64,000 nt of DNA from Shigella phage sb2, in the sequence record PQ666540; one strand, 5' to 3'. Positions 36,905-37,300 of the stretch are shown in pieces (the stretch's first letter is position 1; every line of letters starts with the position of its first letter). The notes beneath the pieces were generated by a model. The model did no database searches. It was not told where the DNA came from and saw only the letters and a program-made list of their open reading frames with translations. A program made the position numbers and the translations under genes.

Positions 36905-37300
36905 TATAAATTCTCTTTTAAATGAAAATGCAGGACTTATTGGCATTGCCTGCGAAAGCCCTCAAGGGGTACTTAGGTTTTGAATATTTACCGACAGGAT
37001 AACCATAAACCTCGTCAACATACCTTATAGCTCTTATCTGTTGCACACCGTTAGCTTAAAGGTTCCGGGTTCGATTTCTCGAGGATAAGATATATACTGA
37101 TGGATATATAGGCCTTGAGGCGTACTCCCGATTAGCCATCACCTCGGGGTAGCATGCACTTGCCGCTATAAAATAACATTCAAGAGGTACACCGTAAAAC
37201 TGCCGGGGTCTTAAAACTATAATGATTCGCAAATCATTAATCAGACAGTTCGACGGCTCCTCGTTTTAACTTCACACTAAGGCAGTGACTCTCCAATAAA

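Follow-up and report, generated by a model that had tools for sequence, protein, structure and literature searches.

A conserved structured RNA in the rIII-30.9 spacer of Shigella phage sb2 and related T4-type phages

The rIII-30.9 spacer of Shigella phage sb2

The subject of this study is the spacer between genes rIII and 30.9 of Shigella phage sb2, which we analyzed in a stretch of 64,000 nucleotides of sequence record PQ666540 (hereafter, the window), and in particular a 141-nt element at the center of this spacer (hereafter, the core). An earlier note, made from the letters of the window alone, had pointed to positions 36947-37300 as free of open reading frames (ORFs) and rich in hairpins, and had listed a small non-coding RNA among several possible explanations. 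This option is borne out by our results: the center of the gap carries a conserved, covariation-backed structured RNA in the sense orientation of the genes, with more conserved hairpins on either side, and we consider it almost certain that the core is a functional structured RNA encoded on the minus strand. That is, its copies share one fold that is maintained through compensatory changes and they show no coding signal, in line with the generic definition of a conserved structured non-coding RNA.

The limits given for the gap were exact with respect to ORFs of at least 60 amino acids (aa), none of which occurs there on either strand, and the gap ranks among the longest of this kind in the window. 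The accompanying statement that no ORF exceeds about 27 codons is correct for ATG starts and fails when GTG and TTG starts are allowed, which add ORFs of 42 aa (36918-37046, minus) and 58 aa (37056-37232, minus). The non-coding spacer proper extends over 36905-37300 (396 bp), since the homologues of 30.9, including gp30.9 of T4, start at MAKQ (ATG 36904) and not at the upstream ATG 36946.

Judged by folding energy, structure in the gap is mostly not beyond chance (whole gap vs. shuffled sequence, z = -1.0 on the minus and 0.0 on the plus strand), with unusual stability only in a 5' domain (37169-37262, z = -3.4). Judged by comparative evidence, the predicted structure is overwhelmingly beyond chance, as described next.

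Covariation and architecture of the core RNA

The core and its parts in this phage are as follows.

37028..37168, minus (sense strand of the flanking genes): core structured RNA, 141 nt, from covariance model, RNAalifold and pair counts
37021..37175, minus: extended helix P1 closing the core in this phage (UAUUUUAUAGC / GCUAUAAGGUA, up to 11 bp), from the sequence
37136..37141, minus: L3 half of the kissing loop, 5'-UGAUGG-3' (alignment columns 29-34, pairing with columns 68-73)
37098..37103, minus: L4 half of the kissing loop, 5'-CCAUCA-3', pairing with the L3 half
37071..37082, minus: P6 hairpin UCGA-GAAA-UCGA, with three of four pairs compensatory (CG/UA/UG; CG/UA/AU; GC/AU)

The core alignment comprised 21 distinct copies from annotated phages, IMG/VR and metagenomes, representing about a dozen T4-related genera (Tevenvirinae and Muldoonvirus). 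RNAalifold returned 43 pairs, 20 of them with compensatory double changes, and counting cell by cell gave 98.8% of cells paired, with the same number of pairs (20) changed on both sides. When the loop-loop contact described below was included as a pseudoknot, the structure had 46 pairs, 99.1% paired cells and 22 compensatory pairs vs. 2-4 double-changed pairs in controls in which every 3' partner was moved by 1-3 columns; none of 500 shuffles matched any of the pairing measures. The variation falls largely into the helices (51 of the 69 variable columns), and the unpaired columns are nearly invariant outside the outlier EcS1. Since the stems covary while the junctions and loops stay nearly invariant across about a dozen genera, both the fold and a specific surface are under purifying selection. 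The RNA is the gene-sense (minus) strand because the 32 G-U cells of the alignment, which include a U-G pair closing P4 in 19 of the 21 copies, would be A-C mismatches on the opposite strand. The single-sequence centroid fold of the core equals the consensus structure, and a covariance model built from the alignment (model R1) finds one match in the window, at 37028-37168 on the minus strand (171 bits, E=2e-38); the core is thus single-copy there. A naive covariation scan for additional tertiary pairs over 23 sequences was dominated by phylogenetic coupling and gave no usable result.

The core is a discrete domain that folds autonomously. Its seven helices, P1-P7, form a four-way junction without linkers, at which P1, the P2-P3 arm, P4 and the P5 arm meet. 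P1 measures 4-11 bp across genera (by eye), with outer pairs that covary (AU/UA/GC). The first arm consists of P2, an 8x6 internal loop (AAGUGCAU / CUCAAG) and P3 with its 13-nt terminal loop; the second is the AU-rich P4 hairpin, the loop of which kisses that of P3; and the third, beside P1, is a three-way junction of P5 with P6 and P7 and the strand J7/5 (GCAACA). The 15-nt loop of P7 (GGAACC...GCUAA) is largely invariant, and the loop of P6 is mostly of the GNRA type (GAAA, GUAA or GGAA), with UAAA or UAAU taking its place in a few copies. The kissing loop was spotted by inspection and then scored as a pseudoknot: its six pairs are formed in 100% of cells and three of them are compensatory (CG14/UA7; GC17/AU2/UA2; GC19/AU2), the two halves changing in step between phages (CGAUGG/CCAUCG in KpV477, CUAUGG/CCAUAG in Muldoon, CAAUGA/UCAUUG in Cronus and EcS1).

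The L3 loop (37130-37146, minus) reads GAGGUGAUGG, an 8-nt match to an extended Shine-Dalgarno sequence that overlaps an AUG; in other genera only the AGG and the AUG are kept, and the AUG belongs to the kissing helix. A small ORF or leader peptide starting behind this Shine-Dalgarno-like GAGGUGAUG was considered and dropped because the ORF is not conserved and its AUG is part of the kissing loop.

Distribution and conservation of the core

Alignment to the rIII-30.9 interval of T4, which had been proposed as a check, was informative: the T4 spacer is 244 bp long and lacks a central block of ~153 bp present in the window, with flanks that remain alignable (~94% identical). Of 1014 phage records matched in a search with the spacer, only 407 carry the central block and ~60% are without it. 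The block is found at 91-95% identity in Klebsiella phages (Jiaodavirus), Citrobacter phages (Moonvirus) and Enterobacter, Edwardsiella and Kosakonia phages (Kanagawavirus, Karamvirus), and in more divergent form in Serratia phages (Muldoonvirus, 86%), EcL8g (84%), Erwinia phage Cronus (81%) and Escherichia phage EcS1 (74%); the divergent copies (70-86% identical) retain the fold. In every annotated locus the core lies between rIII and 30.9 with no consistently called ORF, and 19 of the 39 IMG/VR loci with a 30.9 homologue carry it at the same position. The hosts of the approximately 400 core-bearing phages are Escherichia, Shigella, Klebsiella, Enterobacter, Citrobacter, Serratia, Erwinia, Edwardsiella, Yersinia and Kosakonia. 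From these sequences, the RNA family appears to be restricted to T4-related phages of Enterobacterales.

At the nucleotide level, the core is usually better conserved than rIII, 30.9 or gene 31. Identity to the window (EcS1 excepted) is 79-93% for the core vs. 67-74% for rIII, 58-89% for 30.9 and 61-77% for gene 31, and JS98, a member of another genus, has a core 99% identical to that of the window next to an rIII that is 85% and a 30.9 that is 68% identical.

Outside these phages, blastn found no core in 5,426 E. coli genomes, and an invariant 20-mer of the core had no match in 185,579 bacterial species genomes. A looser gapped pattern gave bacterial loci that we attribute to chance, since 100 of the 120 were scored with the model and all stayed below 20 bits (E >= 0.08), the remaining 20 being unscored; additional viral loci obtained with the gapped pattern had similarly low model scores.

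Hypothetical proteins are annotated across the element in JB75 (JB75_0063A; 1953-2147), KpV477 (kpv477_220; 2578-2721) and vB_Eco-B1.1 (1838-2134). These are most likely spurious calls, because their strand and frame disagree among the records. In addition, a 1.9-kb record of phage LZ9 (FN868251.1, rIII to 30.4) carries the core at 172 bits and has neither 30.8 nor 30.7 between 30.9 and 30.6; this region was evidently sequenced on purpose, and no RNA feature is annotated in it.

The transcription unit and its genes

The rIII-30.9 region is that of a T4-type phage, with the query 36600-37650 being 99.5% identical to phages KNP1 and KNP5, and all genes around the RNA element are on the minus strand. 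In the order of transcription, the neighbors and signals are as follows.

37676-38011, minus: gene 31
37668..37675, minus: T4-type late promoter motif TATAAATA upstream of rIII, from a pattern search; the closest promoter-like signal upstream of the RNA
37301..37549, minus: rIII coding sequence, the upstream neighbor, with the RNA in its 3' untranslated region; 82-aa ORF, PHROG 1457 (lysis inhibition accessory protein, E=5e-44)
36728..36904, minus: gene 30.9, the downstream neighbor in all copies; 58-aa basic protein, PHROG 1427 (labelled unknown function)
36703..36724, minus: intrinsic terminator after 30.9, with a 9-bp stem and a T-run; an annotated terminator in phage JB75
36285-36617, minus: gene 30.8

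The name rIII agrees with the annotation in T4 and relatives, and gp30.9 of the window is 98% identical to gp30.9 of T4; Pfam and PDB searches with gp30.9, made for a clue to its role, returned no relative. The RIII protein has been reported as a binder of S1 (PMC9409239), and a study by Driukas and Nivinskas (2003), cited in the literature, concerns the expression of rIII and 30.9.

The earlier note had placed the ORF-free region between a late promoter for rIII and a terminator at 36695-36722. A hairpin with a T-run is indeed present, at 36703-36724 on the minus strand, and is the probable 3' end of the rIII-30.9 transcription unit. The adjacency of the promoter did not hold, as TATAAATA at 37668-37675 lies upstream of rIII, so that the region is inside the rIII-30.9 unit. 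A scan of the gap for sigma-70, late (TATAAATA) and MotA-type promoter motifs gave nothing convincing; the strict pattern of a MotA box plus -10 element had no match in the gap, and the relaxed pattern had one, at 37045, inside the conserved 3' part of the core. In CF1, Cronus and myPSH1140, P1 of the core begins at most ~10 nt after the rIII stop codon. Because there is no promoter in the gap and P1 follows the rIII stop so closely in several genera, we infer that the core is transcribed as part of the rIII-30.9 mRNA, which would run from promoters preceding rIII (late promoter at 37675) to the terminator at 36703-36724.

With regard to gene 30.9 itself, the mechanically called ORF has 72 aa from ATG 36946, and the homologues, including gp30.9 of T4, begin at ATG 36904 (58 aa). 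In phage Muldoon, the annotation of 30.9 includes 16 additional N-terminal residues, for which there is likewise no support. Sub-threshold Rfam matches to Atu_C8 (31 bits, E=4e-4) and Phe_leader at 36689-36772 (minus) stem solely from the 30.9 terminator hairpin and its U-run; accordingly, neither identity was kept for this segment, since the terminator accounts for both and no small RNA is indicated.

Flanking modules of the spacer

The remainder of the spacer is made up of smaller hairpins, given here from the rIII side to the 30.9 side.

37272..37288, minus: module E, a small hairpin UCAC-(UGCCUUAGU)-GUGA just past the rIII stop, from the alignment
37184..37263, minus: 5' domain, a long irregular hairpin enclosing an 8-bp hairpin, present in T4 too, from folding and RNAalifold
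37220..37239, minus: inner 8-bp hairpin UAAUGAUU-UGCG-AAUCAUUA, the perfect 7-bp hairpin of the earlier note
36976..37022, minus: module B, a hairpin with conserved loop GGUUAUC and tail CGUWAAAUA, from the alignments
36956..36972, minus: module C, hairpin GUACCCCUUGAGGGCUU (listed earlier as CCCTCAAGGGG), kept in nearly all genera
36930..36953, minus: hairpin GCAGG-(14 nt)-CCUGC followed by a U-rich tract, from sequence and alignments
36910..36929, minus: small hairpin pairing the 30.9 Shine-Dalgarno region, from the minimum free energy (MFE) fold and the alignment

The individual sequence motifs reported previously were, on the whole, where they had been placed. The hairpin AATGATTcgcaAATCATT is present at 37221-37238 and becomes 8 bp when T37220/A37239 are counted, CCCTCAAGGGG is present at 36959-36969, and GGGTTCGATT, which had been noted as resembling a tRNA T-loop, is present at 37067-37076, on the strand opposite to the RNA, being the complement of the P6/P7 stems. 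The GCAGG...CCTGC hairpin exists as well, its true place being 36930-36953 and not 36951-36971.

Several of these modules show signs of conservation at the level of pairing. The stem variants of module E (UCAC/GUGA, UCGC/GCGG, UUGC/GCAG) are compensatory as judged by eye, unscored. The 5' domain has an MFE of -25.7 kcal/mol (z = -3.36; 1 of 200 shuffles as stable), and RNAalifold assigns it 25 pairs, five with compensatory changes; in one locus (L080), two pairs of the inner hairpin change (alignment pairs 31-46 and 32-45, AU>UG and UA>CG). In phage L066 (at about 1296-1400), a natural deletion has removed the inner part of the 5' domain together with its 8-bp hairpin and has left the base of the stem, capped by a short loop, in place; this supports the predicted long hairpin. 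The base of the module B stem changes UA<>AU and CG<>GC. The position of module B varies: it is downstream of the core here (and downstream in T4), and precedes the core in phages of Klebsiella, Enterobacter and Serratia. EcS1 and EcL8g have module C on the upstream side of the core. Both B and C are single-copy, no second copy having been found in the 64-kb window. Other genera carry a longer GGGAGC...GCUCCC hairpin at the 36930-36953 slot, and a terminator scan of the region did not flag the hairpin present here. The Shine-Dalgarno hairpin of 30.9 reads AUUUUC/GAGAAU in this phage, UCUCC/GGAAGA in most genera and CCUC/GAGG in Cronus, and is found in phages with and without the core, which suggests a separate translational control of 30.9.

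A further module, D (CUAUCACGCGUCAGAAAAAGGUUAUCUGUCUAAG...), is a conserved hairpin of ~55 nt that replaces the core at its slot in some Dhakavirus-like and other phages (L073-L080, about 1330-1400; L065 and L069); in the Dhakavirus-like phages this slot is the exact position of the core of JS98. Its stem changes look compensatory (CAGA/UCUG vs. CAGC/GCUG), its loop AAAAAGGUUAUCU loosely resembles the RegA SELEX consensus, and EcS1 carries the core plus a D-like module. Since modules vary in presence and order between genera, the rIII-30.9 spacer is best viewed as a mosaic of small independent RNA modules, of which the core is the largest and most elaborate.

Comparison with known RNAs

The core corresponds to no RNA family that we could find. 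Rfam 15 (cmscan) gave nothing at E<=10 for 37010-37185 or for the gap within 36500-37700. Scans of four divergent loci were likewise negative at E<=1, as was that of the whole window at gathering thresholds. A resemblance to 16S helix 27 (GGGAGUACG-CC-CAAGG) was discarded, as 28 of 200 shuffles gave local alignments to the E. coli rrn operon that were just as good. Literature searches returned no account of an RNA in the rIII-30.9 spacer. A covariation screen by Fremin, Bhatt and Kyrpides (2023) predicted ~10,000 candidate structured RNAs (csRNAs) in IMG/VR, including the T4-type gp20 and gp32 leaders (PMC10690425); the text of that paper does not name rIII, 30.9 or T4-like phages, and the core may be one of its unnamed csRNA entries. 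As far as checked, therefore, the core is an undescribed RNA, new at the level of the RNA family; once its function is established, it may turn out to be another case of a functional type already known.

The known non-coding RNAs of T4 and its relatives are few, namely tRNAs, rnaC and rnaD, introns and translational operators. The closest parallel is provided by rnaC and rnaD of T4 (species 1 and 2, 139 and 119 nt), which are, like the core, small structured RNAs of similar size in T4-type phages, without a promoter of their own and within a polycistronic transcript beside other structured RNAs. Unlike the core, they are encoded in the tRNA cluster, rnaC ends in a tRNA-like T-arm (GGTTCGAATCC) that the core does not have, and there is no sequence likeness. 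Homology was rejected directly: model R1, run with filters off over T4 68500-74500, matched neither RNA, the best score elsewhere being 10.6 bits.

In architecture, the core is reminiscent of riboswitch aptamers. Four-way junctions occur in the SAM-I, yybP-ykoY and NiCo riboswitches, and kissing loops in the lysine and cobalamin riboswitches; compared with these architectures, the core shares the size (~100-180 nt), the four-way junction, the loop-loop contact, covarying stems, invariant junctions and a 5' UTR (untranslated region) location, and differs in having no Rfam match, no conserved platform, variable modules before the ORF and a distribution over one phage lineage. The pRNA of the phi29 type is likewise a phage RNA of ~120-170 nt built on a helical junction, with two loops that engage in covarying Watson-Crick kissing, but shares no sequence or Rfam similarity with the core. 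Its kissing is intermolecular and forms a ring on the portal, and T4-type packaging is not known to use an RNA. Finally, PeSL cassettes, which Arbiol et al. are said to have described in 2010 as an early sigma-70 promoter plus a stem-loop repeated around T4-type genomes, resemble the spacer modules as short non-coding pieces shuffled between intergenic sites. They differ in that the spacer has no promoter motif and its modules are single-copy in the window; this identity was rejected because the gap has no sigma-70-like site and because the core and modules B and C occur once in 64 kb.

Proposed role and rival explanations

The explanation that we tentatively prefer, at somewhat less than an even chance, is that the core is an accessory, self-contained RNA that binds a putative conserved macromolecular partner. 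The core would stay in the mRNA or be cut out of it, acting in either case as an autonomous module, and would present an invariant surface, consisting of J2/3 (AAGUGCAU), J3/2 (CUCAAG) and L7-P7-J7/5 (GCUAACGGUGUGCAACAG), to a conserved partner of host or phage origin. It would do so without switching an adjacent expression platform, and the spacer would amount to a second "stable-RNA island" besides the tRNA/rnaC/rnaD cluster. We favor an autonomous accessory RNA because P1 closes the domain, the neighboring modules vary, the initiation hairpin of 30.9 is independent of the core, and T4 and most relatives are without it. Its accessory nature is evident from its absence from T4 and ~60% of the 1014 records, some of which have another module in the slot. 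A more specific version, possible but in our view doubtful, is that the core founds a new class of phage non-coding RNA with an architecture of riboswitch or ribozyme grade, acting in trans, after excision from the rIII-30.9 mRNA, on a factor conserved in Enterobacterales; this factor could be, e.g., a defense or RNA-decay component or the translation machinery.

Several points weigh against an autonomous accessory RNA, or at least temper the case for it. T4 does without the core, so any function of it must be conditional. The fixed place upstream of 30.9 in the same transcript also fits a cis-regulatory leader. The L3-L4 covariation fits intramolecular and intermolecular kissing alike and cannot tell the two apart. 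By folding energy the core is no better than shuffled sequence (z = 0.07). Finally, the comparison rests on ~23 distinct sequences of one phage lineage, and because many compensatory changes are shared by descent, the independent covariation events are fewer than the cell counts suggest.

The main rival, which we regard as unlikely, is that the core regulates 30.9 in cis from its leader, as a riboswitch or by binding a protein; here an aptamer in the 5' UTR would sense a metabolite or a protein, possibly gp30.9 itself, and control the U-tract hairpin and the Shine-Dalgarno hairpin. In every case the core precedes 30.9 and shares its strand and transcription unit, riboswitch aptamers typically have such a size, multi-helix junction, long-range loop-loop contact and set of invariant junction nucleotides, and a U-tract hairpin and a Shine-Dalgarno-occluding hairpin do lie between the core and the 30.9 start. 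However, the distance from core to 30.9 start ranges from ~70 to 185 nt, with differing modules inserted and module B upstream or downstream depending on genus; there is, by eye, no conserved alternative pairing of the 3' strands of P1 or P5 with the downstream hairpins and no conserved expression platform; the two downstream hairpins also occur where the core is missing; none of the Rfam aptamer families matches; and T4 keeps 30.9 without the core. An RNA-processing element, i.e., a self-cleaving ribozyme or a scaffold for RNase III, E or P that would separate or stabilize the rIII and 30.9 halves of the transcript, appears improbable. It would suit the intercistronic place in a polycistronic mRNA, and the complex fold with invariant unpaired nucleotides is compatible with catalysis, while the adjoining 5' domain is a long irregular hairpin of the RNase III-substrate type, such as RNase III cleaves in the early mRNA of phage T7. 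Nevertheless, the Rfam models of the hammerhead, twister, twister-sister, pistol, hatchet, hairpin, HDV-like and glmS ribozymes gave no match at E<=10, simple hairpins suffice against exonucleases, and no feature marks a cleavage site.

The remaining explanations do not involve an RNA of this kind and fare worse. The earlier note had raised regulatory or origin DNA and a mobile-element remnant, and an element acting at the DNA level (an origin of replication, a site of recombination or homing, or a scar left by a mobile cassette), with conservation reflecting recent horizontal spread, would be consistent with the presence, absence and replacement at one slot between constant flanks and with the 99% identical core of JS98 despite its different genus; we nonetheless judge it very improbable. 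The helices are kept by compensatory changes even in divergent copies (70-86% identical), and G-U pairs are tolerated on one strand only, i.e., they are sensible only as RNA. Origins oriF and oriG of T4 consist of a MotA-dependent middle promoter followed by a DNA-unwinding element and are primed by an R-loop; the gap has no strict match to such a MotA-type promoter, nor any other convincing promoter motif. The term mobile-element remnant applies only loosely, to a cassette that may be there, missing or exchanged for another between two constant hairpin domains, and not in the strict sense, given that the core is single-copy and always syntenic, without repeats, defined ends or an associated enzyme. 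A protein gene, decayed or very small, has hardly any standing: the 42- and 58-aa GTG/TTG ORFs and a 27-codon ATG ORF overlap the region and hypothetical proteins are annotated there in several records, but the annotations conflict in strand and frame, no reading frame is open in all core copies and every frame has stops in most, indels of 1, 2 and 7 nt break the frame in EcL8g, Cronus, L033 and EcS1, and the variable columns spread evenly over codon positions (17/16/15) with no third-position excess. The idea that homologous phages have a gene here that simply decayed is thus contradicted. Equally close to negligible is a degenerate tRNA or tRNA-like element, which had been suggested on the grounds of the T-loop-like GGGTTCGATT at 37067-37076 and to which the cloverleaf-like four-way junction might also be taken to point. 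ARAGORN found no tRNA gene in the window, Rfam had no tRNA, tmRNA or tRNA-like match at E<=10, the decamer is on the wrong strand, the arm lengths and loops do not fit, and the core is unrelated to rnaC and rnaD of T4.

Implications

RNAs with a fold this complex and this well conserved typically have a specific molecular function. T4 itself has deleted the element, which is probably why it escaped notice in such a well-studied group of viruses. The role of the core is testable, as T4-type natural knock-outs and replacement alleles exist, by allele swaps between near-isogenic phages. Should the core indeed act in trans, it would represent an accessory tool for host takeover or counter-defense that T4 lost. 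Our results also correct database annotation, in that the hypothetical proteins across the element in several records are most likely spurious.

Other ORF-free stretches of the window

Further stretches of the window without an ORF of at least 60 aa are 58263-58541 (279 bp) and 4123-4350 (228 bp). The 2-kb gap that seems to exist at 61408-63409 is probably artefactual, arising because a long ORF there continues past the end of the window.

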